The notes under the pieces were generated by a model. That model was given only the letters and a program-made list of their open reading frames with translations, was not told the origin of the DNA and made no database searches. Shown here in pieces: positions 5,594 through 21,564 of a stretch of 46,163 nt of DNA (position 1 is the stretch's first letter; each line of letters opens with the position of its first letter). Source of the stretch: a virus (Duplodnaviria > Caudoviricetes); the IMG/VR virus record IMGVR_UViG_3300017716_001567, positions 1 through 46,163 of that record; one strand, written 5' to 3'. Made by a program: the position numbers and the translations under genes.

Positions 5594-5637
5594 ATGGGGT
5601 GAATAGCGGTACGGAATTGTACCACTACCCACCCCAT
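5594..5637 (-). terminator. 19-bp RNA hairpin (terminator or processing site)
   Basis: AUGGGGUGGGUAGUGGUAC-AAUUCC-GUACCGCUAUUCACCCCAU is fully paired with G-U only on the minus strand; followed by UCUUGU. Confidence 0.6.
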
Positions 5638-5645
5638 GCGGTTGA

Positions 5646-6029: not shown

Positions 6030-6030
6030 G

Positions 6031-6906: not shown

Positions 6907-7283
6907 CAGAGGATGTCCTGCCCTTCAAGCACAGTCTTTGCGACTTCCAGAAACTTCCCGTAGTCGTATGATGCGTACTCGGAAGACTGGCCTTGCTCGA
7001 GCGCCCACGCGATCTTATCCAACTCACGCGCGGTGTCGAAGCAGTCATTCTTCCGGAGGCGGATCAGATCGTTACGAGTGATCTTGAGCCGCTGAATCAC
7101 AGCAATGGGGGAGAGATCACCCAGCACTGCGACTACCTGATCCACCCAGACTTCATCGGTGGAACCTTCGGATTCATCCAGATCCCGTCCGGCGTTCTCA
7201 CGGACAGTCTCAGCGATCAGTCGAGCTTCAACCTCGTTGTCGGCATCATACGAAGCCACAACGGTTGCGTAGTACGTTGCCAC
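6906..7283 (-). CDS. Hypothetical protein
   Basis: Translationally coupled on both sides. Confidence 0.75.
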   Translation of the reverse strand: MATYYATVVASYDADNEVEARLIAETVRENAGRDLDESEGSTDEVWVDQVVAVLGDLSPIAVIQRLKITRNDLIRLRKNDCFDTARELDKIAWALEQGQSSEYASYDYGKFLEVAKTVLEGQDIL

Positions 7284-8260
7284 TAGTCATCCCCGTCGAG
7301 GAGGTTTGCGGACTTGAGAGCGGAGCCACGAGACTCGTGATTCCAGTGTTCCTTTTCGTACATCATCTCGAGGTAGCGTTCTTGCTGCGTGTTCGAGCCC
7401 ATCACGTGAACATCGCGGAACTCACAGTTACCATATAGGGTACAGGCACTTGTGAACTGGGGCCACTGCCCACTGTTGTATGCGATGCGGATAAGATTAC
7501 AAGCGTGCTGGACAGACTGCACCCAGTTCGGGAAGTCATCTTCGCTACGCACAGTCAAGTGGCGCTTGAACTTCGTGGGTGATTTCTTGTACAACCCGAT
7601 CGCGTTAATGAAAGCACCACCCACTCGACGGTTGGTGAGTTGCGATGCACCCCACAAGTAGCCAGTGATCTGGTTGTTCGGCTTGTACTGGTTGAAGTAG
7701 TAATCACCCAAACGCGTAGTCGTCTTGTGATCCATGATGTAGAACTGACCATTGAAGTCCAGCATCAAGTCGAAGATCCCACCGTACTGGATGGCATAGC
7801 CATCGTAGGTGTACAGCTGGTTCCCGTTCGCATCAAGGAGTGGGAGTGTGAAGCTGACTTCCAACATGGGGTTGGTCTTGTCGGCATCTACCACCCGCCA
7901 CAGTTCGGAGGGATACTCCCGAGTGTACTCCCCGAGGACTGAGATACACTTGGATAAGTCCCGCCAGTCATCATCAGGATGGTTGGCAGGCCAAGCTTCC
8001 TGCACGGCAATCTCCGCCGCTTCAAGCGAATGAGTGCGATACCACACCTCGATTCCCAGGTGAAGCATCTGCCCGAAGCCAAGTGCGGCGCCCTGCTTTC
8101 GGGGTTTCCACCCTTCAACAATGCGCCGCTTGAACTTCGCTGGACATGTCTGGAACATGGACAACATGTAGTTATCCACCACCAGGATTTTATCTTCCGC
8201 ACTCCCAGGGAGAGGCGGGAACAGTTTACTCTGTTCGGGTAGCACGGGTAGCGGTAGCAT
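7283..8260 (-). CDS. PD-(D/E)XK Cas4/RecB-like exonuclease
   Basis: CPAKF, FGQMLH, GIFDL..IMDHKTT, QITGY, C-terminal C-x5-C. Confidence 0.85.
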   Translation of the reverse strand: MLPLPVLPEQSKLFPPLPGSAEDKILVVDNYMLSMFQTCPAKFKRRIVEGWKPRKQGAALGFGQMLHLGIEVWYRTHSLEAAEIAVQEAWPANHPDDDWRDLSKCISVLGEYTREYPSELWRVVDADKTNPMLEVSFTLPLLDANGNQLYTYDGYAIQYGGIFDLMLDFNGQFYIMDHKTTTRLGDYYFNQYKPNNQITGYLWGASQLTNRRVGGAFINAIGLYKKSPTKFKRHLTVRSEDDFPNWVQSVQHACNLIRIAYNSGQWPQFTSACTLYGNCEFRDVHVMGSNTQQERYLEMMYEKEHWNHESRGSALKSANLLDGDD

Positions 8261-8456
8261 AGAGTGTGTCGATTTCCGCTGTGATGAGTTGCTCGACTAG
8301 GGTGAGCAACGCGATACGGGAAGCTTTGCCCTCGGGGGTGAGTGGAAGGTTATCAGTGGAGACACGTAGTCGTGTCATGGCGATGCGAGCGCGGTATAGA
8401 TCCGTGATGTCAGTGAGTTGGATCATCCGCTTGTGGAAGTTCAGATCGTGGGTCAT
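8226..8456 (-). CDS. Hypothetical protein
   Basis: ORF starting directly after the tRNA-like element. Confidence 0.55.
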   Translation of the reverse strand: MTHDLNFHKRMIQLTDITDLYRARIAMTRLRVSTDNLPLTPEGKASRIALLTLVEQLITAEIDTLYATATRATRTE

Positions 8457-8458
8457 AT

Positions 8459-8532
8459 GGGGGTAGGTGGACACTCGAAGTCCACATCCAAAAGGGTGCG
8501 ACCCTTTGCTCTGCCTCTTAAGCTACTACCCC
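8459..8532 (-). ncRNA. tRNA-like element 1 (collapsed anticodon loop, 6-bp T stem)
   Basis: GGGGUAG-UA-GCUU AAGAGGCA GAGC-A-AAGGG UCGCA CCCUU-UUGGAU-GUGGAC UUCGAGU GUCCAC-CUACCCC-C. Confidence 0.8.
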
Positions 8533-8541
8533 AACCTACTG

Positions 8542-8985
8542 TTACGAGATTGAAATGCCCAGTGCAGCCAGCGTCTCGGCGCTGATCGAACCGTTGGCGA
8601 TGCCCTCGAGGATCTTGGAAACCTGATCCCCACCGATCTTCTCCGCAGCTCCGGCAACAGCCTTCGTCGCGCGAGACTTCGGGGTGGTGCCGCTCATCCG
8701 CGAACCAGGACGGAAGGCAACCTGTGCAGCAGCGATCTCATCCGCAGACTTCTCGGCGGCCTTATACCGACGAGCGATGTTCTGGAAGGAAACTCGCAGG
8801 GACGTGCCATCGAGTACATCCATCACACCCTTGATTCCGTAGTGCACAACAGCGGCATCAAGATCGTCCCACACGAGGAGCCGCACATCACCGAGAGAAG
8901 TCGTACCACGAGCGGTCTTGACTTCTTCGAACTCGAAATGTGCGCCTTCCGGTGCAGCTACAGTCAGGGCGGTTGCTTCAGACAT
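8542..8985 (-). CDS. Unknown protein, probable paralog of 17794..18276
   Basis: GAGGT RBS, own promoter; shared H[YF]G..V...L....S[LI]RV..Q.I.R block. Confidence 0.8.
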   Translation of the reverse strand: MSEATALTVAAPEGAHFEFEEVKTARGTTSLGDVRLLVWDDLDAAVVHYGIKGVMDVLDGTSLRVSFQNIARRYKAAEKSADEIAAAQVAFRPGSRMSGTTPKSRATKAVAGAAEKIGGDQVSKILEGIANGSISAETLAALGISIS

Positions 8986-9065
8986 GCGTCTTACCTCACG
9001 AGGAGTGAATGACACGCGGGAGAGTATTCTCCCAAACCGACCCACGGATTGTGGACCGGACATAC

Positions 9066-9094
9066 AATATACGCAGAGCGGGAAGAGTTCGCAA
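9066..9094 (-). promoter_or_regulatory. sigma70-like promoter TTGCGA-N17-TATATT
   Basis: Intergenic; same architecture as 12848-12876 and 16626-16654. Confidence 0.75.
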
Positions 9095-9113
9095 TGGTTG
9101 ATTTTACCCGCTA

Positions 9114-9362
9114 TCACCGGATGTAATGATGGATCATGACTGATACACCCATCTCGTGGAGCATCGTGGTGATAGGGGAGATATCATTGCTGTCGAACAC
9201 TACGATACGCTCTGGTAGGGTACGGAGGAACAGGAGCAGATCACTCGGCTTGTCGGCTTTCCGGCAGATCGTGATGCGTGTGCCGTCAGCATACCGGAGG
9301 ATCTCCCTCGCGAACGCGGAGTTATCTTTCCAGTCATTCGCCAGGATCACGAGTACGTGCAT
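9114..9362 (-). CDS. Hypothetical protein (weak resemblance to SLOG/DUF2493 N-terminus)
   Basis: MHVLVILANDWKD start; fills the gap in the operon. Confidence 0.5.
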   Translation of the reverse strand: MHVLVILANDWKDNSAFAREILRYADGTRITICRKADKPSDLLLFLRTLPERIVVFDSNDISPITTMLHEMGVSVMIHHYIR

Positions 9363-9852
9363 CGAGTGCTACCGATTCGAGTTTAGCGACTAGCTGCAGG
9401 AGAGGGAGATCACTCGCCACGGTGCGATTGCGGGAGTACCAGTTGTGCATCTCTCGTGCTTCCGCATCGGAGTACTTCGCACCGTGCTTACGGAGGATGT
9501 CGTACTCAGGGCGGTTGACACGGCGGAGGACTGAGTAGACAGTCTGCCTGGAGATTGAGAAGATACTAGCAAGCTGGTACTGTGAGGCGCCGGCTAGTGT
9601 CGCACCGAGGATGAAGTGGCTACGCGTCGGGTCGACTACGTAGGCTTTCTTGGGGGTAGTCCCACCCGTAGGGAATGGTACCTCCGTTGGGTCACTTGCG
9701 AATCCGTCAGGGATGGTGAGACGGAGCAACGCATCCACATCAGCTTCGTCCAGGTGAGGGTATGTGGCGGTGAGATAGCTATTAGCTTCTGCCCGAAACA
9801 TACCCTTCAACCTTGCCATGTCGTTAAGCGGAATGGGAAACAGGTTGTCCAC
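9334..9852 (-). CDS. Helix-turn-helix DNA-binding protein
   Basis: GASQYQLASIFSISRQTVYSVL HTH. Confidence 0.7.
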   Translation of the reverse strand: MDNLFPIPLNDMARLKGMFRAEANSYLTATYPHLDEADVDALLRLTIPDGFASDPTEVPFPTGGTTPKKAYVVDPTRSHFILGATLAGASQYQLASIFSISRQTVYSVLRRVNRPEYDILRKHGAKYSDAEAREMHNWYSRNRTVASDLPLLQLVAKLESVALDARTRDPGE

Positions 9853-9858
9853 TAGCGG

Positions 9859-10233
9859 TTAGTCCTCGAAGGAGGTCGTGACAACAGGGGGAGGAGCCAT
9901 CTCGACCTTGCTCACGATCTTGAGCACGTAGTACGGACGGTCCTGGCGGGTGAGGTGTGCAGCATGACGGCTAGCTTCCTCCACGTTCTGGAAGAACTTC
10001 TGAGGGATCTGGATCTTTCCGTTCTGGATCTCATCCAGCGGGGCGACGATGTAAGGGCGCTCCTTGACGATGGGTACAGGGGCGTTGGCTACGATGATGG
10101 ACATCTTGGATGAGTCTGAGGTGGTGTGTGGAGTCTGGATACGGCGAGGCCGCGTGTGCGCAGGCAGATACCCGAAGTCTTTGTTCACATACGGAGGTCC
10201 ATTAGTGAGCCAGTCGAGTTCGGAGTCATCCAT
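9859..10233 (-). CDS. Hypothetical protein
   Basis: AGGGGT RBS upstream of ATG 10233. Confidence 0.65.
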   Translation of the reverse strand: MDDSELDWLTNGPPYVNKDFGYLPAHTRPRRIQTPHTTSDSSKMSIIVANAPVPIVKERPYIVAPLDEIQNGKIQIPQKFFQNVEEASRHAAHLTRQDRPYYVLKIVSKVEMAPPPVVTTSFED

Positions 10234-10326
10234 ATTTGTACCCCTATGTTAAATGGTGGAGACAACAATACGGCGAGTGGCAAGAGGCCACCCACCGGAC
10301 ATTAGCAAGATTGCGATTCGTACTAG

Positions 10327-10393
10327 TGCACTCCCTCGGGATCGAACCGAGATAACGCTGGAGGACCGCTATGCGCCGACACACGCGGAGTGC
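10327..10393 (-). ncRNA. tRNA-like element 2 with anti-SD sequence in the anticodon-equivalent loop
   Basis: GCACUCC-GCGUGUGUCGGCGC-A-UAGCG GUCCUCCAG CGUUA-U-CUCGG UUCGAUC CCGAG-GGAGUGC-A: canonical 7-bp acceptor and 5-bp T arm, reduced D arm, no variable loop. Confidence 0.75.
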
Positions 10394-10430
10394 AGAGTGG
10401 GAGGTGGTGGTTAGCCACCCCCCGAGACTA

Positions 10431-11873
10431 CTACTGCATGCTGAACGTACGCGGAGAGTCAGCGGTGAGCTGTGCCGCCTTGAGCGTACCATCGGCGAGC
10501 ACACGAGCCGCAACGATGCTCGGGTGTTCCACGATGGGGGTCTTGTGGTTCAGCACATCCAGCTGCTGCTTCATCGAGGCAGCCGCGCCGAGCAGGTCAT
10601 CTTCACTGATGCTCCCTGCAGTCGGAGCGTGGCCCGTGCGCCAGATGGACTGGAGCTTGGACCGTTCCACCACCTCACGGATCACAGCGGGGATGAGACC
10701 GGACAGCTCATGGGAGAGCCGGTTCAACTCGCCATCTTCCACCAGCCCCTTGCCGTACACACGGACGAGACGGAGTGCAGCCTTCGCATCCGGCGGAGTG
10801 ACTTCCACCAGCACGTCGATACGGCCAGGACGGAGCATCGCAGTGTTGATGTTCTCGAGGTGGTTGGTAGTGAGAACGACCATCACGTCGGTGTTCTTGG
10901 AGTCGATGCCGTCGAGGGTGTTCAGCACATCGTCGATCTCCTCGGTACGGTCCTGACCGCCCACGACACGATCCACGTCTTCCGCGAAGATCACGGCGGG
11001 CTGGTACTGCCGTGCGAACTGGATGGCCTCGGGAAGTTCCGCGACGTGCTTGATGTAGATGAAGGTGGTCTTGGACTCCACGCAGAACTTGGCGACCTTC
11101 CGTGCGAGGAGGGTCTTACCGGTACCGTACTTGCCGGCGAGCAGAACACCACGCTTGAAGGGGATGCCGGCGAGCTTGCAAGCAGCGCGATTCACGATGG
11201 GAGCGTAGATGTTCGCACCGACGAGCTGCTCGATGTGATCGGAGAACGTGAGCGCGTCGACTTCGGGGGAATCGAAGTTGTAGAACGTGATGGAAGGCAT
11301 GGCACGAGACTCACCGTTGTCCTCGCGGAAGGACATCGTGAGCGCACGACCCGAGTAGAACGGCTCGGTCCAGATGTAGTGCTGCATCTTCGCGATGATC
11401 TTCTGCACGAGGTGATCGTGCTTCTTCCGGTACTCACCCTGGACCTGGAACTTCACGCGGTCGTCTTCCATCACGCCGCTGGTGTGCAGCCACCCGCCGT
11501 CAGGGGAGATCTGCATACGGCCCCAGATGATCTCACGCGTCTCGGTGAGTGAGACGGGGATCGAGATGCGCGAGGGCGGAGTGGTACCGAACCAGCTTTC
11601 CACCGCGACTTCAGTCGTGAAGCCCTGGATATCCTTGATCGCGCGTTCGAGGGCCATGCTGCCTTCCCACGGGAAGACATTGAACGTGCGCTGGAACCGC
11701 ATGAGGGACTCTTCCGCCTTCTGCTGGCGGTCGAGGACTTCAATCGCATCCTTGAGTGCCATCCCCTCAGGGACGAGGAGCTTCTCCCCAGTGCGGACGA
11801 CCTCCGCTACCGTGGTGGAGTTCTTCTTGTTCACAGCGTCAGTGATGACTGCCAGCATTTCGTGCGCTTCCAT
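10431..11873 (-). CDS. Classical-clade AAA+ ATPase
   Basis: RGVLLAGKYGTGKT, IFAEDVD, LTTNH..AMLRPGRID second region of homology. Confidence 0.9.
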   Translation of the reverse strand: MEAHEMLAVITDAVNKKNSTTVAEVVRTGEKLLVPEGMALKDAIEVLDRQQKAEESLMRFQRTFNVFPWEGSMALERAIKDIQGFTTEVAVESWFGTTPPSRISIPVSLTETREIIWGRMQISPDGGWLHTSGVMEDDRVKFQVQGEYRKKHDHLVQKIIAKMQHYIWTEPFYSGRALTMSFREDNGESRAMPSITFYNFDSPEVDALTFSDHIEQLVGANIYAPIVNRAACKLAGIPFKRGVLLAGKYGTGKTLLARKVAKFCVESKTTFIYIKHVAELPEAIQFARQYQPAVIFAEDVDRVVGGQDRTEEIDDVLNTLDGIDSKNTDVMVVLTTNHLENINTAMLRPGRIDVLVEVTPPDAKAALRLVRVYGKGLVEDGELNRLSHELSGLIPAVIREVVERSKLQSIWRTGHAPTAGSISEDDLLGAAASMKQQLDVLNHKTPIVEHPSIVAARVLADGTLKAAQLTADSPRTFSMQ

Positions 11874-11939
11874 GTGAGTACTCTCCAGTACAAGTTGTGC
11901 AGGATACGGCCTGCACTCCGTTGGGACTCAGTCCCGAGG

Positions 11940-12422
11940 TTACCGCTCGTTTTTGATTGACTCATGGTACACATGCGTCATGCTGTGGACGAGGATCTTG
12001 AGCACGCGAGTGTGGAGTTCCGCATCCACGAGGTCACCACTCACAGCGAAGAACTCGGAGTTCATCTGGCGCATGTTCTTATTCACGAATTGCATCAAGT
12101 CAGCGATGAGCCTCCCGCGCTTGAACTTCCCCTCCACGAACATGTACTGGGAAGTAATCGCGATGAGTTGTGCAACATGACGTGCGGTGCGGATCTCGCA
12201 AGTCATCGTGTAGTGATTCGCATCAGGTCCGGCAGGCCCGCAGGACTCCAGCAGGTCTGCGTAGGTCTGAATGATGTCCATGGGAGTGTCGATCTTGGCG
12301 AGCTTATTCGCCACCATGCTGATACCGGAGGTAGTGGAGAGCATATACTCCGCCATGTCGGCAGGGATACCGGACTTCTCCACCATCTCCCGATCAAGGG
12401 CAGATGAGATGCGATTAACCAT
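11940..12422 (-). CDS. Hypothetical protein
   Basis: Coupled ORF with phage-like codon usage. Confidence 0.7.
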   Translation of the reverse strand: MVNRISSALDREMVEKSGIPADMAEYMLSTTSGISMVANKLAKIDTPMDIIQTYADLLESCGPAGPDANHYTMTCEIRTARHVAQLIAITSQYMFVEGKFKRGRLIADLMQFVNKNMRQMNSEFFAVSGDLVDAELHTRVLKILVHSMTHVYHESIKNER

Positions 12423-12771
12423 TGACGAGTTCCTCCATCGTGGAGATCTGAACTTCCGTCATGGTCATGCAGATGTCCCGCAGGTTGGACTTGATGATCG
12501 CGTTAGCGATGGGAGTGTGCATGGCGAAGGTCATCCTCAAGCGCATGAACTCCTGGATGAAGCCAGGATCGAACTCGTTATCCTCGGTATCGTTGAGGAG
12601 TTCCATGAGGGGGTGGAGGAGCTTCGCGAGTCCGGTAGTGATCGTGACACTCGCAGTGGCGCTGAGTCCACGCTCGTAGATGTCGTGCTTCTCCACGTCA
12701 TCGCAGAACATATCAATCTTGGTCATGAGTTCCTCCTGCCGCTGCTTGAACTTCTCGCACATCTCACACAT
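12415..12771 (-). CDS. Hypothetical protein (MCEMC start)
   Basis: CTGGAGG RBS; first gene after promoter 12848-12876. Confidence 0.75.
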   Translation of the reverse strand: MCEMCEKFKQRQEELMTKIDMFCDDVEKHDIYERGLSATASVTITTGLAKLLHPLMELLNDTEDNEFDPGFIQEFMRLRMTFAMHTPIANAIIKSNLRDICMTMTEVQISTMEELVNG

Positions 12772-12847
12772 GATTGCCTCCAGGCAAGTTGGGTGTAGTG
12801 TGGCAGGAGCGCGCGCCAGGTAGCGGTCGCCCCGTGCCACATAATAC

Positions 12848-12876
12848 AATATACCACCAGACCAACAACTACGCAA
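12848..12876 (-). promoter_or_regulatory. sigma70-like promoter TTGCGT-N17-TATATT with TG extension and A-rich UP element
   Basis: Minus strand AAAATAAAAATAC...CCATTGCGT-N14-TGG-TATATTGT. Confidence 0.8.
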
Positions 12877-12905
12877 TGGGTAGTGTATTTTTATTTTGGC
12901 AGGGG

Positions 12906-13121
12906 CTAGCGCCCACGGTAGATCGCACTGGCGATCGCCTCACGATCACCGGAGATGACAGCATTCCGAACTTTCTTGCATCGCGTCTTGATCGGTTCGT
13001 AGCACTGGCAGTACCCAGTCTCGAGCGCGAGTTCGATCTCGGAGGCGAGGGCGAACTCCGCATCGGTGTGAGTGGACGGCGATGAGTCTTCCGTTGTGAC
13101 GAGAGTGAACTCGGCAAGCAT
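12906..13121 (-). CDS. Hypothetical protein
   Basis: GAGGGA RBS, in operon. Confidence 0.6.
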   Translation of the reverse strand: MLAEFTLVTTEDSSPSTHTDAEFALASEIELALETGYCQCYEPIKTRCKKVRNAVISGDREAIASAIYRGR

Positions 13122-13123
13122 TG

Positions 13124-13330
13124 TCAGTCCCTCGGATCGAGTGGGTGGGTGGCAGGAAGCGATACACCTTCAATCTCTGCGTACTTCTCGAGCTTGAATC
13201 GGCGCGCGAGGTGAGAATCAATCTCATCACGGAGCTTCCAGATCTGCGCGTCGATGAGTTTGACTTCCTTCGCGACGTTCTCGGAGACGATCTTCTCGAT
13301 GTTGGTCTCGAGGATGATGGGGCTACTCAC
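13124..13330 (-). CDS. Hypothetical coiled-coil protein
   Basis: GTG start overlapping the upstream stop, GGAGG RBS. Confidence 0.6.
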   Translation of the reverse strand: MSSPIILETNIEKIVSENVAKEVKLIDAQIWKLRDEIDSHLARRFKLEKYAEIEGVSLPATHPLDPRD

Positions 13331-13607
13331 TGGGCAATCCCTCCACGAACTTGTCGAGCGCAGCGAAGATGATCGCCTGTCCATCGTCGGTGGCCTTGGA
13401 CATATCATCTGCGGCGGTCTTCGGATCAGGGTTGAGTGCAATCACCAGATCCATGATGGACTCGGGGACTCCCTTGAACCCATGCCCAGGGTACGACACA
13501 ACGAAGCCATCCAGCATGACACTCATCGCAAGGAATGTGGAGGCGGGGACAGTGATGGTGAGGTCCTTCACTGCTTCACGCAGTAGGGATGCGTCTACGG
13601 TCTTCAT
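13323..13607 (-). CDS. Hypothetical protein
   Basis: GGAG RBS, in operon. Confidence 0.65.
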   Translation of the reverse strand: MKTVDASLLREAVKDLTITVPASTFLAMSVMLDGFVVSYPGHGFKGVPESIMDLVIALNPDPKTAADDMSKATDDGQAIIFAALDKFVEGLPSE

Positions 13608-13608
13608 G

Positions 13609-13983
13609 CTAGGGGTGCTCCGTGAGTCCCGATTCATCGGGGATGAGGGTGTCGTTGATAGTACGGGGGATCAGTTCGAGTTGTACATTTTCGTACGCCT
13701 TCACAATCGAATACATCCACTGCGGTCGGGCGATCTGGTTGGACATGTAGGAGAACTTACGCATAGATGTGATGCGACGCTTGACTTCGTCGGGGTTCTC
13801 CTTCCGCCGTGTTACTTGCTCACACGCGAGCATGTAGTTCAGCGCGTTGCGGATAGTAGACTCGCTGCAGGCTTCACGCTTAGCGAGAGCACTGACTGAT
13901 GCTGCAGGCACCACGCGTAGGATATTGAGGATCTTCTCCACGCGTTGCTGGATAGTGATGTGTCCGTACTTGTGTGCCATCAT
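13609..13983 (-). CDS. Winged-HTH DNA-binding protein
   Basis: QRVEKILNIL..SVSALAKREACSESTIRNAL, DeoR/HTH_11-like pattern. Confidence 0.65.
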   Translation of the reverse strand: MMAHKYGHITIQQRVEKILNILRVVPAASVSALAKREACSESTIRNALNYMLACEQVTRRKENPDEVKRRITSMRKFSYMSNQIARPQWMYSIVKAYENVQLELIPRTINDTLIPDESGLTEHP

Positions 13984-14162
13984 AGTGGATTCCTGAGAGT
14001 ACGCATGACGGAGGTGCGCTTGAGTTCGTCCAGATCTTTCTGGAGTAGCGCGATCTTCCGCTCGAGTCGCTCAAGCGCGTCGACTACCTGCTCCGATGCG
14101 AAGCGGGTGAGGGGCACTTGATCGAGTCCGTTACGTGCGAGGGCTTCGGTACGCTTACTCAT
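13980..14162 (-). CDS. Small coiled-coil protein
   Basis: MSKRTEAL..LERLERKIALLQKDLDELK; coupled on both sides. Confidence 0.6.
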   Translation of the reverse strand: MSKRTEALARNGLDQVPLTRFASEQVVDALERLERKIALLQKDLDELKRTSVMRTLRNPL

Positions 14163-14325
14163 CTTTGGTATCATCCTCATCGTTGAAGAGTTCTTCATGT
14201 TCATCCAGGTCTGCGAGGAGTTCCGCAGCACCTTCATCACAGTACTCATCGTCAGCGAGGAGTACATATCCCACGAAGTCAGAGTCTTCCATCTTGTGGT
14301 GGTGTTGGCAGTAGAAGATACTCAC
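14155..14325 (-). CDS. 56-aa highly acidic protein (not in ORF track)
   Basis: GTGA-coupled start; MSIFYCQHHHKMEDSDFVGYVLLADDEYCDEGAAELLADLDEHEELFNDEDDTKDE. Confidence 0.65.
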   Translation of the reverse strand: MSIFYCQHHHKMEDSDFVGYVLLADDEYCDEGAAELLADLDEHEELFNDEDDTKDE

Positions 14326-14495
14326 TGGTTAGGTTCCGGTTGAGGTACCGGTTCGATCTGATACCACGGCTTCCCGTTGCTGTTCTCCCAGATAGTTCCG
14401 TCGTCACACAGCACAGTCGTGATATGGGCTAAGTCGTTCGTTTCAGACCAAGGGACTACCGCAGTAGCGATCTGGATAACCTTGCGTCTGGTCAC
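14322..14495 (-). CDS. Small phage protein with LCDDGTIW motif
   Basis: GAGGAGG RBS, GTGA coupling. Confidence 0.65.
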   Translation of the reverse strand: MTRRKVIQIATAVVPWSETNDLAHITTVLCDDGTIWENSNGKPWYQIEPVPQPEPNQ

Positions 14496-14692
14496 TTGGA
14501 CGCCTCCTCGGGTTGAGTCTCGTCGATACAGTCGAATCCCAGATGGTCGAGCATCGGCATGAGGTCTTGCCACTCACGCTCACGAAACACCAGTGTCCCG
14601 CATAGCGCCATGTGATCGGACTTCACAAGTGATCCGAACACTCGCACGTGTACGTGACTGCCGAGGAGCTTGTAGCGGAATCGGAGGTTCAT
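14492..14692 (-). CDS. Hypothetical protein
   Basis: GGAGA RBS, in operon. Confidence 0.65.
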   Translation of the reverse strand: MNLRFRYKLLGSHVHVRVFGSLVKSDHMALCGTLVFREREWQDLMPMLDHLGFDCIDETQPEEASK

Positions 14693-14693
14693 G

Positions 14694-14951
14694 TTACTGA
14701 TTCTCCATCATGAGGTGCATGACTGTGTTACAACGAGGAGACTCAAAACTCCCAAGTACATCCGTGAGCTTCTGTGCTTCGCTTCGCTCAGCATGGATGT
14801 ATCTACTACGATCCACGATCTCGTTGGCTTCCTCGAGTGAGTACACCCCCGCGAAGTGTACATCTGCAGCATAGCCACACTGATCAGCACCCCACCACAT
14901 GTTGTGCTTGTATGACCAGATGAGGTATGCTGTGTCCCATGTGAGCTTCAT
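14694..14951 (-). CDS. Hypothetical protein (WS.KH.MWW...GY motif)
   Basis: GGAGG RBS, ATGA coupling. Confidence 0.65.
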   Translation of the reverse strand: MKLTWDTAYLIWSYKHNMWWGADQCGYAADVHFAGVYSLEEANEIVDRSRYIHAERSEAQKLTDVLGSFESPRCNTVMHLMMENQ

Positions 14952-15220
14952 GACTTCCTCCGTTGTGCGACTAGCGCTTCCGCAAAGTTGTACTTTTCAG
15001 TTTCGAGGTCGGATTTCTCCCAGAAGTGCCAACGTGCGCCACAAGAGAGGCACTCGTAGAACAGGTCAATCCCCCAGGCTACGTGATGCGCGCAAACTTC
15101 AAACGCACTATCACACAGGCAAGTATCCGGATCGTTGCCTTCATCCTCCGGAGTGATCTCGATCTCAGGCTCATCCCATGAGGGATCGTAGTCATTGCGT
15201 GCTGGGATGCTGTTACGCAT
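14948..15220 (-). CDS. Acidic Zn-ribbon-like protein
   Basis: CLC...YECLSCGARW. Confidence 0.6.
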   Translation of the reverse strand: MRNSIPARNDYDPSWDEPEIEITPEDEGNDPDTCLCDSAFEVCAHHVAWGIDLFYECLSCGARWHFWEKSDLETEKYNFAEALVAQRRKS

Positions 15221-15443
15221 AGGGAGTACCCTCCAGAGTGCGCTTCATCATGCGCTTGGCGTCAGGGTGGATGTAGATGCTACCACCGAACTGGGAGAGC
15301 GCTGCAAGCGCGATGGAGAATGCCTGTCCAGGATCTTCCGAGTACTGCTTGTGCTCCCCGCGCTGGATTCGGAACTTCCGCCAGAACTGCGAATAGAAGA
15401 TCCGAATATACTGGGGATCGGGGTTAGACTTATGGGAGCGCAT
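15213..15443 (-). CDS. Hypothetical protein
   Basis: In operon, GAGG RBS. Confidence 0.55.
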   Translation of the reverse strand: MRSHKSNPDPQYIRIFYSQFWRKFRIQRGEHKQYSEDPGQAFSIALAALSQFGGSIYIHPDAKRMMKRTLEGTPYA

Positions 15444-15444
15444 C

Positions 15445-15621
15445 TTACCGTGCCTCGTCCAGGATGATACGATCCACATAGACCGCACGTACTGTATCGA
15501 AGTCTCCCATGATCGTGGCGACTTCCACCCAGCGCCCGTTGCGGTAGACTTGCTTTACAAGCTTCCGACGGTGCCAGGAGAAACAGTACACATCGTCAGT
15601 CATGCTCCACACGATCAGCAT
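15445..15621 (-). CDS. Hypothetical protein
   Basis: AGGAG RBS before MLIVWS. Confidence 0.55.
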   Translation of the reverse strand: MLIVWSMTDDVYCFSWHRRKLVKQVYRNGRWVEVATIMGDFDTVRAVYVDRIILDEAR

Positions 15622-15622
15622 G

Positions 15623-15802
15623 TTAGCACTCCTGTCCGTTCTCATGGGTGAGGAACCCACCAGAGTTGAGGATGTGGAGGAGCATCGACTCGAGCACGAT
15701 AGTCGCACGGGAGCGCTTGGGATGGATAAGAGCGTACTTCCCAGTTCCCATCGGGATGACTTCTGCAATCTCACCGATGCGGTCTGTGATGAAGGTACTC
15801 AT
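15623..15802 (-). CDS. 59-aa hypothetical protein (not in ORF track)
   Basis: ATGA-coupled; MSTFITDRIGEIAEVIPMG... Confidence 0.55.
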   Translation of the reverse strand: MSTFITDRIGEIAEVIPMGTGKYALIHPKRSRATIVLESMLLHILNSGGFLTHENGQEC

Positions 15803-16041
15803 GGGCGCACACTCGGCATGGTCACGAGGGTGGCAATGGAGGTGGATGATTCCGAGTTGAACATAATCACGGAGTCACACACGCAGTTATGCACTTGCCC
15901 ATCTTCATCTCCCATAGTGTCGAACATTCTCATAATCCAATCGAGTGCTTGTGACTTCTCAGCCCACTCGGTCACGCGCCAGGTTGGTATCGACACGAGT
16001 GCTCCAGACATCCGGAAACTTGCTACATACGTGTACTTCAT
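15799..16041 (-). CDS. Hypothetical protein
   Basis: GGAG RBS. Confidence 0.55.
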   Translation of the reverse strand: MKYTYVASFRMSGALVSIPTWRVTEWAEKSQALDWIMRMFDTMGDEDGQVHNCVCDSVIMFNSESSTSIATLVTMPSVRP

Positions 16042-16140
16042 GTGGACTCCGACTTGAGTTCCATGCGGGTGTTGCAGCCCACCACCGAGGTGTGATGGGC
16101 TATGGTACGATCCGGCACGATTAATGCCGGCTTCGCCTAG

Positions 16141-16542
16141 TTATCCCAGGCAGATACGCGATCCGTGCAACCTCCAGCAGATCGGACACTCGATTCCCTC
16201 GGGGAGCATATCCCACGAGGTGGAAGGCTCGAAGGTGTACTCATCAACCTCCGGTCCCTGCTGTGCCTCCCACGGGATGATCTCCATGATCTCCCCCCAC
16301 GCCGTGGCGAGGGTGATGAACCTCGGATCACCCAAGCGGCAGCGCTTCATCTCATCCATGAGGATGGCTGCGTGCATGATGTGGGCGAGGGTGTACTCGT
16401 ACGCAGTGTGGTACGACCTCGCCATTCCCGTGCTGTACTCCAGCACCACGTCGAGCACATTCGCTTCCGTACGCTCGAGGATGGCATCGAGCACCCCGAC
16501 TTCATTGTAAAGGCTCTCCAACTGTACCATCTGCTGCTTCAT
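16141..16542 (-). CDS. Hypothetical protein with C-terminal CPIC..H...C
   Basis: GGAGA RBS; first gene after promoter 16626-16654. Confidence 0.7.
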   Translation of the reverse strand: MKQQMVQLESLYNEVGVLDAILERTEANVLDVVLEYSTGMARSYHTAYEYTLAHIMHAAILMDEMKRCRLGDPRFITLATAWGEIMEIIPWEAQQGPEVDEYTFEPSTSWDMLPEGIECPICWRLHGSRICLG

Positions 16543-16625
16543 GTCCGTATTCTCCACGAGTGGGAATATCTGCGGCGTGGCGAGGTCCACGTCCGCGAGT
16601 ATGGGCGCGATCCGGCCCACATCAC

Positions 16626-16654
16626 AATATACCACCCCTCCCCACACTACACAA
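16626..16654 (-). promoter_or_regulatory. sigma70-like promoter TTGTGT-N17-TATATT
   Basis: CATTGTGT-N14-TGG-TATATTGT, matches the other early promoters. Confidence 0.75.
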
Positions 16655-16949
16655 TGATTAGTGATGATCGGATTTCCATCTGCACGATAGTTGCCGGCTG
16701 CGCCTAGCACATGAGTGGTACAAAAATGTGCAACTGACATGATTATGGCCGACTTCGTCTACCACCGACATACTCACATGCGGCCCTGTTGGGATGGCGA
16801 GCTGGGCCGTACATGGTGGGATTCGATGTGCGCCGCAGGCCCCGTGAAACGGCGTGAAACGCCCCACCACGCCACGATCGGCCTCCGGCCATACCCACGT
16901 ATGCCCAGGATCGTTTGTGCCCGCATTTGCGTCAGGACCTCCTTCCCAT

Positions 16950-17305
16950 GCCTGCTGGCTGGTAGTCCTTAACCCACAGTCCTTCCACGTAAGTCGTTGC
17001 GGCACATGGGTTTACCCCACCTGCGTCAGGCTGGCTTGCTCACCTACCTGCCCCCCCGATGCACGTGAAGGACCTTACCCCTGCCTTCCTCCCAGCCTGC
17101 GTGTGTATGCTAGCTGGCTAGCTGGCTTGCTTGTGCTAGGTCCTTTTCCTCTCTATATACTATCTAAAAAAAAATTTTATAGTGAATAAGAGAAAAGTGT
17201 TAGTACATAAGCACATTACACTCGATCAGGCTGGCTGGATGGCAGGCTGGCTCCACGGGTACATCACGGGGGGAGGTAGTAGAGCCAGCAAGCAAGCCTG
17301 CAATC
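16950..17305. other. Non-coding region: AT-rich core flanked by GCTGGC repeats (origin-like)
   Basis: AT-rich 17143-17220 including an A-run; CAGGCTGGCT at ~17027, 17227 and 17243, further GCTGGC copies and inverted GCCAGC. Confidence 0.45.
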
Positions 17306-17529
17306 GTGTAACCCGTTGTGGCATATGGAGTTACGCATTTTGGACTTCCGTCAGTACTTCCTTCCTGACGTGTGACATTCATCACCAAGTTGTGCAAGTG
17401 GTACACATTTGTACACCTCAAGCTCTAGTTCACGAGTAAGCTACCTTGTCAAGGTCATGTGTATTCTTGATTCCGGATATACCAAAAAGCACGACTCGAG
17501 GGATGTAAAGTCCCCCAAGTACGTGCTAG

Positions 17530-17733
17530 TTAGCTCTTATTACCTCGCATCGTCCGCAAGAATGCGTGCACCTCATGCAACTTGTACACAAAGAACGCAT
17601 CAGTCTTGAGACAGCTAAGCACAATCCAGACTGTCCCGCTTAGCACTGTCACATCCTCCACACGGCAATCTTGCCTCTCGATCGCGTTGAGTTCGGACAC
17701 CTCAAACGTATCGCGTACGAGTACTGACGACAT
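17530..17733 (-). CDS. Hypothetical protein
   Basis: CTGGAGG RBS. Confidence 0.65.
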   Translation of the reverse strand: MSSVLVRDTFEVSELNAIERQDCRVEDVTVLSGTVWIVLSCLKTDAFFVYKLHEVHAFLRTMRGNKS

Positions 17734-17763
17734 ATGGCCTCCAGGCCGTTCGGTTAGTCGTTA

Positions 17764-17789
17764 TGTCTGACTCCCCAAGGTCACATCCC
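17764..17789 (-). repeat. 3' arm of imperfect 26-nt inverted repeat enclosing gene 17794..18276
   Basis: Pairs with 18354-18379: 21/26 Watson-Crick plus 3 G-U on the minus strand. Confidence 0.85.
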
Positions 17790-17793
17790 TTAA

Positions 17794-18276
17794 TCACGCG
17801 AGAGTCTGGCTGCTAGCCAGGGCCGTCGCGATAGCCGCCGGAACACCTGCTTCCACGAGCGCAGCCGCGTACAGCTGCTGGAACTCCACCACGTCACTCC
17901 CATTGTACAGTTCGCCGTTCGGGAGCGTGTAAACCCGCACCTGGATCGGGCTAGCTGTCGCCCGCACGCCACGCATAGCGTTGTACACAGCGTTCCGCAA
18001 GTTCTCAGTATCCTTGTCCCCAGCTTCCAACCGAGCACGGTTGATCGCCTGAGCACGGACACGGATCGAGTTGCTCGCGTTCAGCATAGCCAGCACCGCC
18101 AGCTTCCCAAAGTGCGCCTCGAACTTCTCGAAGTCAGAAATCTTCGGGAGCTGCGCAGGCGTCGCAAACGCCACGCGATCAGTCTTGTTCGGACCAGCCT
18201 GCTTGCTGACCGTTTCCGTCTCCCACGTCATGCCGTAGTCAGCCCAAACGTGAGAAGCGCTAGAAGTTGTTGCCAT
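17794..18276 (-). CDS. First early gene, unknown protein, probable paralog of 8542..8985
   Basis: CTGGAGG RBS; downstream of the TTGACA promoter. Confidence 0.85.
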   Translation of the reverse strand: MATTSSASHVWADYGMTWETETVSKQAGPNKTDRVAFATPAQLPKISDFEKFEAHFGKLAVLAMLNASNSIRVRAQAINRARLEAGDKDTENLRNAVYNAMRGVRATASPIQVRVYTLPNGELYNGSDVVEFQQLYAAALVEAGVPAAIATALASSQTLA

Positions 18277-18353
18277 GTTGATATCCTCCAGGGATATTGA
18301 CCTACATGAGTTTCCTACGGGAACCAGGACGATTTCCTAGTTCCCCACACTGG

Positions 18354-18379
18354 AGGATGTGACCTTGAGTTGTCAAACA
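18354..18379 (-). repeat. 5' arm of imperfect 26-nt inverted repeat
   Basis: UGUUUGAC-AA-CUCAAGGUCACAUCCU pairs with GGGAUGUGACCUUGGG-GA-GUCAGACA. Confidence 0.85.
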
Positions 18380-18485
18380 GCGCGTCCAAGTCGCCCCACC
18401 ATGATGAGGGCTACCTGGTCGGCTCGTGGCCCCAACTCGCGACGCGCACCTTCCGCACGTCACGCTCGCCACGTCCGACACCATC

Positions 18486-18513
18486 AATGTACTACATCCC
18501 GCCGGAATGTCAA
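18486..18513 (-). promoter_or_regulatory. sigma70-like promoter TTGACA-N16-TACATT driving the leftward early arm
   Basis: Consensus -35 and near-consensus -10, followed by a long GC-rich 5' hairpin. Confidence 0.7.
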
Positions 18514-18663
18514 GCTGCCACCATGCCGACGGGGGGCACCCCCCACAAAGACATGGGGTGGCGGAGAAGCATATCCTCCCCAAATCGCACCACTTTTGAA
18601 GCTATTCAGTGGTACAATAATGTACAAGTGGCGGAGGGGCAAGGTATAGTCGCTAACGTCCAG

Positions 18664-18692
18664 TTGCGGAGAAAGGCTAGATATGGTATGTT
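18664..18692 (+). promoter_or_regulatory. Rightward promoter TTGCGG-N17-TATGTT, probably giving a leaderless TerS mRNA
   Basis: Same TTGCGN-N14-TGG-TATRTT form; ATG lies 5 nt after the -10 with no SD. Confidence 0.6.
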
Positions 18693-18697
18693 GGGAT

Positions 18698-19273
18698 ATG
18701 GCGAATACGAGGAAGCCCGACTGGGCGCGGACATATGGGACACAGGTGGAGTACGAGCGCCGTGCGAAACGCACTTCGCTTAGCCCCCGTGTGGAGCACG
18801 CGTTGCGGTTGTACAGTATGGGCACTGCGCCAACCAAAAAGAAAGCTGCTGAGATGGTGGGACTCACGCCGGCAAGCTTGTATGGTGTGACTGGAGCATT
18901 CAACGGGAACAATCTCGCGAGGCGTTTCTTGGAAGATACTAGCGCACAAATCCATGAGCGCGCGGTAGATGTGGGAGCGCTCTTGCATCGGTTGAGTCTG
19001 GAGGCTATCGGAACCATAGATCACATTCGCAAGAATGGGACTACGGAGGACATCCGCCTCAAGGCTAGCATCGACCTCGCCGATCGTGGTCCGCAGACTG
19101 GAAAGATCCAGAAGCACCAAGTCGAATCGTTCACACTTGCTGGTAAGGATGTGGAGAACATCCGACGTGCGATGCTCGAAGGTGCAGATGTGCAAGCTCT
19201 GTATGGTGAGGTCGCCCAGGATTTCGAGCAGGTCACATCTACCACGGTTAGCGATGCTAGTCAGTCAAGCTGA
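18698..19273 (+). CDS. Putative terminase small subunit (HTH)
   Basis: TKKKAAEMVGLTPASLY HTH, EDIRLKASIDLADRG; first gene of the late arm. Confidence 0.65.
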   Translation: MANTRKPDWARTYGTQVEYERRAKRTSLSPRVEHALRLYSMGTAPTKKKAAEMVGLTPASLYGVTGAFNGNNLARRFLEDTSAQIHERAVDVGALLHRLSLEAIGTIDHIRKNGTTEDIRLKASIDLADRGPQTGKIQKHQVESFTLAGKDVENIRRAMLEGADVQALYGEVAQDFEQVTSTTVSDASQSS

Positions 19274-19547
19274 AGTCGTGCTAGCGCTTTTCAGCGCAGC
19301 CCTCGGTGGTATGGCTGGTGCGGTGGGAGGAGCATTCGGAGCAACGAGAGCACTCCAGAAAGAATTGCAAGATCTTAAGCTCATTCATGGGGATAGGTTG
19401 ATCCGTGTTGAGACTCGTGTGGGGATCACAGAGGAAGGCGCTCTCACCGGCAACGGACTGATCGGCACCATCCGAAATGTAACAAGACGCATGGACGCTC
19501 GTAACGATCGACAGCACCCATTCACTGGAGATGGTAATCATGGCTAA
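19254..19547 (+). CDS. Single-TM membrane protein (holin-like)
   Basis: N-terminal hydrophobic helix followed by a coiled coil. Confidence 0.5.
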   Translation: MLVSQAEVVLALFSAALGGMAGAVGGAFGATRALQKELQDLKLIHGDRLIRVETRVGITEEGALTGNGLIGTIRNVTRRMDARNDRQHPFTGDGNHG

Positions 19548-19641
19548 GAAGATACCGTTCGGGAAGAAGGCAGTCAAGGGCCCGAAGCCTGAGAAGATGT
19601 GCGCGAAGTGCAAGAAGCCCATGAGCAAGTGTAAGTGCTAA
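19540..19641 (+). CDS. 33-aa Lys/Cys-rich peptide (not in ORF track)
   Basis: MAKKIPFGKKAVKGPKPEKMCAKCKKPMSKCKC, CTGGAG RBS. Confidence 0.6.
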   Translation: MAKKIPFGKKAVKGPKPEKMCAKCKKPMSKCKC

Positions 19642-19642
19642 G

Positions 19643-19864
19643 ATGAGCACTCTAGCCGAGCATTCGAGCAGCAAGACCGAGGTACTTCAAGTGCTATTCG
19701 GTCCCGCTTGGCGTGAGCTTATCGCAGCCATCGCGTGGGAGTTGCTCGACCGCATGGATCCTAGCGCCACTGCCATCACGATCCAGAAGTGGTTCATAAA
19801 TGTACGCGTCACATGGGCGGATATCGCTCACGCGGTGAACATACTATTTGGTCCGCACCCATGA
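19643..19864 (+). CDS. Hypothetical protein
   Basis: Coupled ORF. Confidence 0.6.
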   Translation: MSTLAEHSSSKTEVLQVLFGPAWRELIAAIAWELLDRMDPSATAITIQKWFINVRVTWADIAHAVNILFGPHP

Positions 19865-21564
19865 GTCTGATGACACTATCACCTCGTCGTGGGGGAGTGG
19901 CTAGCGCACCTGTCGTGGGTGTTGCGGCGGTTCTTACACAGCAAGGCACTCCAACAACTGGAACGCTCCGTTTTACAGGAGGATTCTGGTTACCGGAAAC
20001 TGGTAGTTATTCGATGAGCGAAGCTGACGTAACTGCTAAGAAGTTCAGCGTGTGGATCGGCGGCGTTGAACAGGCTATTCATGCTGAAGCAATGCGTGGC
20101 CGGCATCCTAACGGAAATGTGCGATGCGTTCGATACGATCTTGATTACACCTGCGCATCCACGGCTGACGTCGTGGCTAGTGTAGTCATCGGTGTAGCCC
20201 GAGGAACAACTGATATTTCCCGCCGCGCCATCACGCAGTCTGTGAGTCAGGCAAAGCGTTGGCTTGTCGCGACTGATACAGACTTCACTACGTCGACAAA
20301 AGCGACAGGGATGCCGCTTGCAAAGTCGTCTTTGTGGAACGCAGCCGAGACAGCATTCTTCACCACGATGTTCGATTATGCCATTTTCTACACTGACACA
20401 TATCAGAGTGGAAGCAAAGGTGCAGCAACGTATGATCCAGCGCGAGCATGTGTGAGTGCTTTTCTTTGTACTGGTAACATAACGTACTTAAGCCAAGCGT
20501 ATGTTATCGCTACGAAGTGGATGACAGAGTACCACTTGCAAGCTGGAACAGACAACAACTACGGTGGCACAACACAGATTGATACTGAGTCTCTTGGTGT
20601 GTACGCTGTGTCATTCCCTGAGCAGTACTCCCTCATGGAGTGGTCCTTTGGGCTAGCGTATGAGTTAACAGGGTGGTCGTACTACTGGGCGTTGCTGAAC
20701 CAGTATTCACAGCGATTCTTCTGTGCGGCTGGTGTTGAGGCGTCACAGCGCACAACGGGTGAGTTTCTTTACCGTGCGACTGCTGGTGATAATTCAATTC
20801 GTAGAGCGTATCGTAACCTTCGGTGGATGCTTGGTGGGTATACGTTTGATACTACGTATGCCTACGGGGATGCAGACAGTGGTCCACGCAATCCAGATTG
20901 GGCTGCGGAGCTGCCTTGGCATCTAGACTCAATCGAGTACAACAAGTACGACACGTCTGCTGGGGCGTATAAAGTAAACTTCCGTGGACAGAATCCCGCG
21001 CAGATTATCGCGAGTGGTGCTTGGTCAGCGGGTGATTTTCAGAATTTCGCGGTATCCATCGTAAACAACGCACTGATTGATTATCTGGAGAACATCAAGA
21101 CAGATGCACGTTTGGTGGGATGGGTTAAGATAAACATGGATATCGTGTTAGCGAACGCGAGCGAACTGCCCGCGCTGCACTACTACCACAACAACGGTGG
21201 CGCGACGAGTGGGAAGTACGCGACTCCGTATAAGAATACATCTACCGCCGTGACATCGTTATCTGTCGATGGCGGACCAAGTGGCTCAGGTGAATTGAAT
21301 GATCCGTTTGACTTTTGTATGCACGTTCGGGCACTAGCATTTCTCGCTGTTGAGTATCCTAGCGACGTTGTGAATGGCAAGACGTACGCCCAGTGGCGTG
21401 ATCTTGCTATGCGCCCAGAGCAGATGGAAGGTATGGCGTGGAACTGGAAGTTCATCGGCGAAACCGTGCAGGCTTTTGACGCTCCGTATCGTCGCATTTA
21501 TGGTAACCCGTCGCGTCCTGCCACGATTCGTACTCCCACAATCCACACGAATCAGCCGACATGA
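19861..21564 (+). CDS. Probable virion-associated protein, possible alpha/alpha-barrel glycan-active domain
   Basis: Aromatic-rich helical repeats (TGNITYLSQA, YELTGWSYY); ATGA coupling. Confidence 0.5.
   Translation: MSLMTLSPRRGGVASAPVVGVAAVLTQQGTPTTGTLRFTGGFWLPETGSYSMSEADVTAKKFSVWIGGVEQAIHAEAMRGRHPNGNVRCVRYDLDYTCASTADVVASVVIGVARGTTDISRRAITQSVSQAKRWLVATDTDFTTSTKATGMPLAKSSLWNAAETAFFTTMFDYAIFYTDTYQSGSKGAATYDPARACVSAFLCTGNITYLSQAYVIATKWMTEYHLQAGTDNNYGGTTQIDTESLGVYAVSFPEQYSLMEWSFGLAYELTGWSYYWALLNQYSQRFFCAAGVEASQRTTGEFLYRATAGDNSIRRAYRNLRWMLGGYTFDTTYAYGDADSGPRNPDWAAELPWHLDSIEYNKYDTSAGAYKVNFRGQNPAQIIASGAWSAGDFQNFAVSIVNNALIDYLENIKTDARLVGWVKINMDIVLANASELPALHYYHNNGGATSGKYATPYKNTSTAVTSLSVDGGPSGSGELNDPFDFCMHVRALAFLAVEYPSDVVNGKTYAQWRDLAMRPEQMEGMAWNWKFIGETVQAFDAPYRRIYGNPSRPATIRTPTIHTNQPT

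Follow-up and report, generated by a model that had tools for sequence, protein, structure and literature searches.

The first early gene of an uncultured freshwater phage is flanked by two complementary strands, one in its 5′ UTR and one in its 3′ UTR, and the locus raises the question of whether the resulting helix processes the message, protects it, or controls its translation. The window analyzed here is the whole 46,163-nucleotide stretch of IMG/VR virus record IMGVR_UViG_3300017716_001567, a phage record that is complete at 46 kb, has direct repeats at its termini, and encodes a family A DNA polymerase, a primase, a terminase, and an SU10-type portal (positions are those of the window, and features lie on the minus strand unless indicated otherwise). 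Sequencing runs containing this stretch carry freshwater, riverine, or sediment habitat labels, with only one run, possibly the source, containing most of it. Among deposited phage records, the first early gene had no match and the best terminase match was 33%. An Rfam scan of the window returned a single match (E 0.58) and neither a ribozyme nor an rRNA match. Several other features were recorded along the way. The DNA polymerase (4115–1632) carries an N-terminal uracil-DNA-glycosylase-like domain, and a 19-bp hairpin (5637–5594) between the genes at 6029–5646 and 5591–4338 is the strongest contiguous minus-strand helix. A near-palindromic motif of about 23 nt occurs in four copies (16714, 17397, 18608, and 19788; plus strand) around the divergent promoter region, with look-alikes in the related locus L002, and these copies are possible operator or packaging sites. 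The noncoding stretch 17017–17310, rich in short direct and inverted repeats of the GCTAGC/GCTTGC type beside an AT-rich run and with a counterpart in L002 (1469–1549), is a candidate origin or genome end.

We infer that the 160-aa ORF at 18276–17794 is the first early gene from its place behind a sigma70-type promoter at the head of a minus-strand arm that ends in DNA-replication genes. The promoter (18513–18486) consists of a −35 box (18513–18508), a spacing of 16 nt, and a −10 box (18491–18486), with 10/12 consensus matches. Its detection is weak alone, as the scan finds 5 such sites per 7 kb against 4.8 in shuffled sequence; a matching promoter lies 5′ of the orthologue in L027, L036, L037, L040, and L042. 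Transcription would start at about 18479 and produce a structured 5′ leader (18479–18382) with two predicted stem-loop domains, a layout that is similar in L002. In both leaders a CAUCAUGG loop caps a hairpin just 5′ of the boxA-like motif described below (18406–18399 in the window and about 449–456 in L002), on differing stems. Downstream of the gene, a second small ORF of 67 aa (17733–17530) is probably part of the same transcript and is followed by a terminator-like stem-loop (17520–17494), a weak candidate given that 3 such structures were found where 4.0 were expected in shuffles.

The protein itself gives little indication of its role. No Pfam or PHROG family was common to more than 1 of 94 family members, and a PDB sequence search with the 160-aa protein gave no match under E 0.4. 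The structural model is confident (pLDDT 93.8) and describes an alpha/beta protein, for which Foldseek returned no match at E 0.001 (best VIA Z 4.8); this absence of a fold match is evidence neither for a new fold nor for any function. Atlas searches returned only unnamed clusters or low scores. It has a pI of 6.7, with 15 basic and 15 acidic residues. Twelve close homologues were found, and the family comprises at least 140 clusters at 50% identity. The window also encodes a 147-aa paralogue (8985–8542), roughly 9 kb from the first early gene. Paralogues were found at 11 loci (L028, L030–L035, L038, L039, L041, and the window), most of them with a sigma70-type promoter of their own. The paralogue is followed by tRNA-like elements with T-loop motifs, in the window at 8531–8459, and ESM Atlas holds viral clusters of 52–192 members near it.

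The original prediction placed a 24-bp helix between 18379–18354 and 17789–17764, the latter beginning 5 nt past the stop codon, and folding reproduced it as 8 bp, a 2 × 2 AA/GA internal loop, and 16 bp, with an energy of −41.5 kcal/mol and three G-U pairs among the 24. These G-U pairs had been taken as a sign of selection at the RNA level, an argument that holds for the window, where the opposite strand folds at −32.5 kcal/mol, but does not extend to the family: the transcribed strand is the stabler one in only 4/7 helix-bearing loci, and the opposite strand folds equally well or better in 3/7. None of 60 dinucleotide shuffles of the 3′ region and none of 500 shuffles of the arm reached the observed energy. 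The minus strand of the window has 35 helices of at least 14 bp within 1 kb and the plus strand has 44; a 16-bp core of Watson-Crick and G-U pairs is thus not rare in this genome, and the case therefore rests on relatives.

Within the leader, the 5′ arm shares 5 nt with a cis anti-Shine-Dalgarno sequence (anti-SD; 18358–18350) that is, as claimed, a perfect 9-nt complement of the SD at 18291–18283 (SD region 18297–18282). Between the two lies an 11-bp spacer hairpin (18345–18319; −19.2 kcal/mol), whose sequence varies in a relative (sequencing run X5) with no listed change in arm or SD. That the anti-SD cannot serve both partners at once was borne out by folding of growing transcripts from 18479, at equilibrium and on RNA free of ribosomes and Nus proteins: the predicted probability of anti-SD:SD pairing was 0.96–1.00 in 7/7 transcript lengths ending before 17784 and 0.00–0.02 in 7/7 lengths reaching 17780 or beyond. 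In these folds, the presence of the trailer abolishes the predicted pairing at a sharp switch point, which was unchanged when the boxA-like motif was held unpaired in folding. The predicted unmasking of the SD in the window is partial, because in the full-length fold the SD refolds into a weak 6-bp local hairpin (−4.3 kcal/mol) that covers half of it. The mean unpaired probability of GGAGG after the switch is 0.59, and the cost of opening the SD goes from 9.0 kcal/mol before to 6.0 kcal/mol in the "on" state. A third partner, a perfect 13-nt complement of 18363–18351, is located in coding sequence inside the second ORF (17660–17648). In folds of transcripts to 17600 or 17490 this 13-bp pairing is preferred by 1.6–2.4 kcal/mol and the 24-bp helix has a probability of 0.08, with the SD released either way; the third-partner pairing forms later than the 24-bp helix. 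It is apparently lost in a close relative (run X4), if the contig and the X4 5′ arm belong to the same genome. A single change was seen in the X4 5′ arm, opposite a 3′ arm that is unreadable base by base.

Relatives were therefore compared at eight distinct first-gene loci (the window, L002, L027, L036, L037, L040, L042, and L044) and at 11 paralogous loci, including that of the window. Family members are encoded in 15 of the 16 retrieved loci; L029 lacked one and was dropped, and L043 and L045 duplicate L036 and L040. The weakest orthologue by score, L037 (E 1e-17), was placed by position, with its paralogue L038 on the same contig. Single-protein and close-alignment scans of viral contigs and a genome-contig scan yielded no relative, and 23 loci retrieved with a leader DNA pattern were treated as chance, none of them being similar to the window by blastn. 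Terminases of the five related records checked are 45–54% identical to that of the window, and the enclosed ORFs of the orthologous loci encode 138–160 aa. A 5′ UTR/3′ UTR helix beats shuffled sequence in 7/8 orthologous loci (reached by 0–2 of 60 shuffles; z −2.1 to −4.7) and in 0/11 paralogous loci (5–56 of 60 shuffles); the window paralogue, which has neither boxA nor helix, serves as an internal control. When the arm was defined by a fixed rule as the 30 nt after the boxA-like motif and own-locus pairing with the 3′ tail was compared with 5040 permutations of the loci, the true assignment was the best of all (mean −37.4 versus −16.7). Between loci, the arms agree at only 3–12 of 30 positions, with the exception of L027 and L042 (26/30), which leaves six independent arm types. 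The structure of the helix is thus kept, by sequence comparison, while the sequence of its arms turns over. Covariation in homologous loci had been put forward as a check, and it came out positive in the form of this locus-specific pairing, the arms being too divergent for column-wise counts. The AA loop is common only to the window and L002, and its AA belongs to boxA; readings of the AA/GA loop as a twister, K-turn, or Mini-III element were dropped on these grounds. The remaining orthologous locus, L040, has neither boxA nor helix and instead shows a strong local hairpin after the stop codon, so the frame is, as far as its sequence tells, dispensable in at least one lineage.

The sole sequence common to the seven helix-bearing loci is a TT(G/C)ACAA-cored motif located just 5′ of the arm or overlapping it. 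It lies inside the leader, 3′ of the promoter and directly 5′ of the leader strand, in 7/8 orthologous loci, with one change in the L002 copy. In the window, the motif (GCTGTTTGACAACTCA; 18381–18366) overlaps the outer 8 nt of the 5′ arm, has its sole exact copy in the genome here, and is a likely NusB/NusE site, a feature that the original prediction had passed over. An 11-nt form of the motif was then sought upstream of 16S genes, which gave 23 loci: 7 from Gemmatimonadota, 7 from Acidobacteriota, 3 labelled Gammaproteobacteria, and 6 others where the motif looks like a −35 box and a distinct boxA lies farther downstream. Where a trailer was available, the leader-trailer helix of the 16S locus begins at or within about 13 nt of the motif in 6/8 cases. 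Among 30 Gemmatimonadetes 16S leaders, drawn from 106 matches irrespective of the motif, 29 have a boxA of this form 146–182 nt before the 16S gene, 13 of them with the TTGACAA core. That core serves as boxA in 2/29 Acidobacteriota leaders, most of the rest having an AAAA variant; similarity scores for Acidobacteriota are biased by included −35 boxes, and only the listed motifs were used. G465, G466, G098, and G502 are counted in the tallies behind these two sets of leaders but are absent from the 59 leaders compared. G004, which is unpublished, underlies the L064 leader and helix, is one of the five genomes tested for NusB and RNase III below, and is the center of the Terriglobia RNase III and Acidobacteriota surveys.

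We read the motif as boxA and the unit as an rrn-like frame. The motif does contain a perfect −35 hexamer (TTGACA), which also forms the −35 box of the paralogue promoter in 6/11 paralogous loci, and together with the strand symmetry noted above, where the opposite strand folds as well or better in three of seven loci, this would fit arms that act as DNA inverted repeats at an inversion or insertion boundary behind a second −35 box. We find this hard to credit: no −10 box that fits the promoter pattern follows the motif in any of the seven phage loci, the arm sequences are unconserved, unlike recombinase sites, all 8 orthologues stand in one orientation behind their promoter, and four related runs contained no inversion joints, with patchy cover. 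Reading the motif as boxA, we find the resemblance to rRNA precursors that the original prediction had suggested to be stronger than claimed, given the boxA-like motif at the head of the 5′ arm. For the rrn antitermination complex of E. coli, boxA is described as both required and sufficient, the proposal being that the leader remains tethered, with the RNA looping out, up to the point at which the trailer appears (PMC10250234; bioRxiv 2026.03.17.712431); the rrnTAC is further described as bridging the 5′ and 3′ arms (bioRxiv 2026.03.17.712431). The phage unit has the same order as the rrn leader described there, namely promoter, boxA, and immediately thereafter a leader strand whose pairing partner, the trailer, lies several hundred nt downstream (PMC10250234; bioRxiv 2026.03.17.712431), and its motif matches a host-type boxA in sequence and position. 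Judged by its sequence, the unit is built like a miniature rrn operon around an mRNA and would work like an rrn frame, except that it encloses an ORF and no rRNA. Unlike in the rrn leader, the leader strand doubles as an anti-SD or anti-start strand, the helix has about 17–31 pairs compared with 25–40 in Enterobacteriaceae, there is no conserved boxC, and the likely host group mostly lacks RNase III. In the window and L002, the two cases in which transcription would read through past the trailer, boxA is a clean pairing partner of the trailer as well, apart from its AA, which stays unpaired; as these loci are each other's closest relatives, this may reflect shared descent.

Masking of the start region until the 3′ UTR is made had been proposed for the window, and the same two-state design is predicted in 7/8 loci with locus-specific sequences; the part of the proposal that weakened is the completeness of the release, in view of the partial unmasking described above. 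Pairing of each arm with its own start region was again the best of 5040 permutations (−20.4 versus −13.2), and it beat shuffled arms in 6/7 loci (0–7 of 500), L037 being the one that fails (74/500). The element that the arm covers until the trailer is present is the SD in the window, L002, L036, and L044, the SD flank in L027, the flank and start in L042, and the start codon in L037. In whole-transcript folds, with transcript starts set by hand about 7 nt past the −10 box, the energy needed to open positions −15 to +9 drops with the trailer in 7/7 helix-bearing loci, by 1.9–9.0 kcal/mol: from 13.5 to 8.8 kcal/mol in the window, 8.2 to 6.3 in L002, 14.8 to 8.9 in L027, 11.6 to 6.0 in L036, 14.9 to 5.9 in L037, 9.9 to 4.6 in L042, and 9.1 to 6.3 in L044, compared with 9.2 and 9.2 in L040, the locus without helix and boxA. 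It could be argued that boxA and the helix serve only fast, Rho-proof transcription and the protection of the ends, giving a stable closed-loop mRNA, and that pairing with the start region is a by-product of an arm that complements a G-rich trailer. Trailer and start region are indeed alike in several loci, and accessibility improves by only 1.9 kcal/mol in L002 and 2.8 kcal/mol in L044, and incompletely in the window. We nevertheless regard a by-product as rather improbable, as the arm matches its start region in a locus-specific manner and the window anti-SD runs 4 nt past the helix, where the 3′ arm sets no constraint.

A further claim had been that the anti-SD is nearly the same 9-mer as the loop of a tRNA-like element. 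The element in question is a tRNA-like cloverleaf (10393–10326) found by ARAGORN at a relaxed threshold only, whose loop at the anticodon position contains the SD-complementary CCUCCAG. The match is 8/9, and no connection emerged beyond the SD complementarity of both. By its sequence, this loop could pair with ribosome-binding sites in trans.

The identity of the host bears on how the helix would act. Judged by boxA, and among the phyla surveyed, the host is likely a member of the Gemmatimonadota; the window motif matches Terriglobales leaders over 15 nt and the best Gemmatimonadales leader over 16 nt. The gene family had no match in 401 Gemmatimonadota genomes, a comparison of window positions 100–19900 with the same 401 genomes gave only short chance-level matches and no prophage link, and no CRISPR spacer or tRNA link was found among seven re-aligned matches, two of which were checked for flanking repeats. 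NusB is present in 5/5 tested genomes of boxA-bearing bacteria (4 Gemmatimonadota and 1 Terriglobales) and Rho in 5/5 Gemmatimonadota genomes. RNase III was detected in 15/151 Gemmatimonadota genomes, 60/61 Terriglobia genomes, and 0/5 of the tested genomes behind boxA loci, and it has been reported absent from Gemmatimonadetes (bioRxiv 10.1101/705046). Gemmatimonadota (e.g., L047, L052, L063, and L068) keep long 16S leader-trailer helices though 136/151 genomes show no RNase III domain.

These counts have to be weighed against the idea that the helix is mainly a processing stalk, cut by RNase III (or opened by the host factor that opens the 16S helix) to free a monocistronic mRNA with paired ends and to remove the anti-SD context. 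The geometry matches host rrn leaders, and the uninterrupted helix cores of about 16–22 bp are of a length that RNase III can cleave; in phage lambda, RNase III cutting relieves repression of N. In E. coli, boxA-led complexes are described as boosting co-transcriptional RNase III cutting (bioRxiv 2026.03.17.712431), and the Terriglobia, which share the motif, nearly all have the enzyme. The scarcity of RNase III in Gemmatimonadota nevertheless speaks against a stalk, as do the arms, which share no common sequence or loop motif save the AA loop of the window and L002. Excision would also be needless in five relatives with a terminator-like hairpin after the trailer and in L002 with its hammerhead (below), and cutting alone leaves the locus-specific match of arm and start region unexplained. 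We consider a processing stalk unlikely, and the RNase III excision put forward originally is not supported; it is weakened if the host belongs to the Gemmatimonadota and would be more plausible if the host is an acidobacterium. Because the likely host group mostly lacks detectable RNase III, the helix probably acts by strand exchange and not by cutting.

How the 3′ end of the message arises differs between loci. In five relatives the trailer is directly followed by the terminator-like hairpin, four of these hairpins having a clear U run, and in the window and L002 a second ORF follows, in L002 behind a type II hammerhead (1074–1125, plus strand) that begins 5 nt past the trailer. This hammerhead has an intact core with stems I–III and scores 25.8 bits, below the gathering score of 37. 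The last bases of the L002 trailer could instead extend its stem II. No hammerhead was found 5′ of the gene in L002, and the six other orthologous loci were empty in Rfam. Type II hammerheads have been described in phage intergenic regions (PMC3088659), and the one right after the L002 trailer resembles them. Unlike the conserved core of the unit, it occurs in 1/8 loci and would be an optional route to a 3′ end. The hammerhead would also be an ingredient of a quite different arrangement, in which the helix either allows closed-loop re-initiation by setting the stop codon beside the start or, given a self-cleaving ribozyme and a ligase, readies the mRNA for covalent circularization; this would agree with a helix that begins within about 15 nt of the stop in 7/7 helix-bearing loci. 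With no ribozyme match in the window or the six other orthologous loci and none 5′ of the L002 gene, we regard such an arrangement as very unlikely.

Sequence and comparison establish that the helix exists and is conserved despite changed sequence, that arm and start region match locus by locus, and that the motif is identical to rrn boxA. From these, from folding, and by analogy with E. coli, we think it on balance likely that the first early gene sits in a miniature rRNA-operon frame whose leader strand is a completion-dependent translation switch. Folding suggests that the anti-SD would pair with the SD once the SD is transcribed, that about 10 nt of trailer would later begin to pair with the 11 nt of the arm still free and strip off the five shared pairs, and that the start region would then be 1.9–9.0 kcal/mol cheaper to open. 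A start hidden during transcription would leave the message exposed to Rho, and boxA would supply the protection: if the E. coli case is a guide, it would recruit the Nus antitermination complex, which would keep Rho off the nascent RNA while it is untranslated and would keep the leader close to the exit channel for as long as the trailer is missing, and the closed ends would also stabilize the message. A leader strand that the Nus complex keeps in the exit channel might be unable to form the anti-SD pairing on nascent RNA. The message would end at the predicted intrinsic terminator in the five relatives, at the hammerhead in L002, and after the second small gene in the window. We would guess that the benefit of delayed translation is a durable, high output of early protein from a stable message. 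Tentatively, we extend this to a family of Gemmatimonadota phages that may have turned the host rRNA frame into an RNase III-independent device that finishes first and then translates, in which boxA would keep a ribosome-free message Rho-proof, the leader would silence the start, and the trailer would displace it and seal the ends, evicting NusB/E in the window and L002.

The RNase III stem of lambda lies within the leader itself, cleavage brings about the release, and boxB and the N protein are required. The phage locus resembles the lambda N leader in that translation would be held off on nascent RNA and released later, and also in having boxA between an early promoter and the first early gene, as described for PL-nutL-N (PMC5725501). 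For suhB and lambda N, the same source describes looping that depends on boxA and repression of translation (PMC5725501). Unlike in lambda, the partner strand of the phage lies 3′ of the stop codon, and nothing marks the 160-aa protein as N-like; the leaders of the compared loci contain hairpins, but no common or conserved boxB was seen. The aapA/IsoA and hok/Sok systems, as described, share with the phage a transient SD-masking structure that is replaced by a 5′–3′ long-distance interaction in the full-length RNA (PMC6733600). In those systems the full-length RNA is described as inert and activated by 3′ trimming (PMC6733600), whereas the full-length phage fold is predicted to be open, start-region accessibility being predicted to rise in the full-length RNA in 7/7 helix loci, opposite to a type I toxin mRNA. 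They also differ in having no boxA, and the phage has neither a small hydrophobic toxin, its product being an alpha/beta protein, nor an antisense antitoxin by promoter scan. In Staphylococcus aureus icaR, pairing of the two UTRs of one mRNA likewise controls translation, but there the 3′ UTR is described as pairing with the SD, blocking initiation, and feeding RNase III (PMC3868564), whereas the phage 3′ UTR would pair with the anti-SD. The nearest published cases, as aapA/hok (PMC6733600) and icaR (PMC3868564) are described, are thus of opposite polarity. In the open-access full-text literature, which mostly leaves out subscription journals, we found neither a phage mRNA in a frame of boxA plus leader-trailer helix nor a 3′ UTR that activates in cis by capture of an anti-SD.

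We conclude that the RNA element is real and conserved, a form of the rrn leader-trailer system used on an mRNA, with a putative translation switch that has good computational support, and the case adds comparative support for competing pairing at the start region. The design is kept across phages with terminases only 45–54% identical. If the switch is true, it would be a natural case of a 3′ UTR that activates bacterial translation in cis and purposely separates it from transcription. The bacterial 5′/3′ UTR pairings considered here (icaR, aapA, and hok) silence translation, whereas the far end of the phage message is predicted to switch it on. It would also be a case in which a phage applies rrn-type antitermination and leader-trailer pairing to an mRNA with no recognizable N protein involved, and would offer a 700-nt model for whether Nus factors chaperone long-range pairing outside rRNA. 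For a phage group without a close match among the deposited phage records searched, the boxA match is a host clue, and the phage helix raises the question of the role of leader-trailer helices in a phylum from which RNase III is mostly absent.
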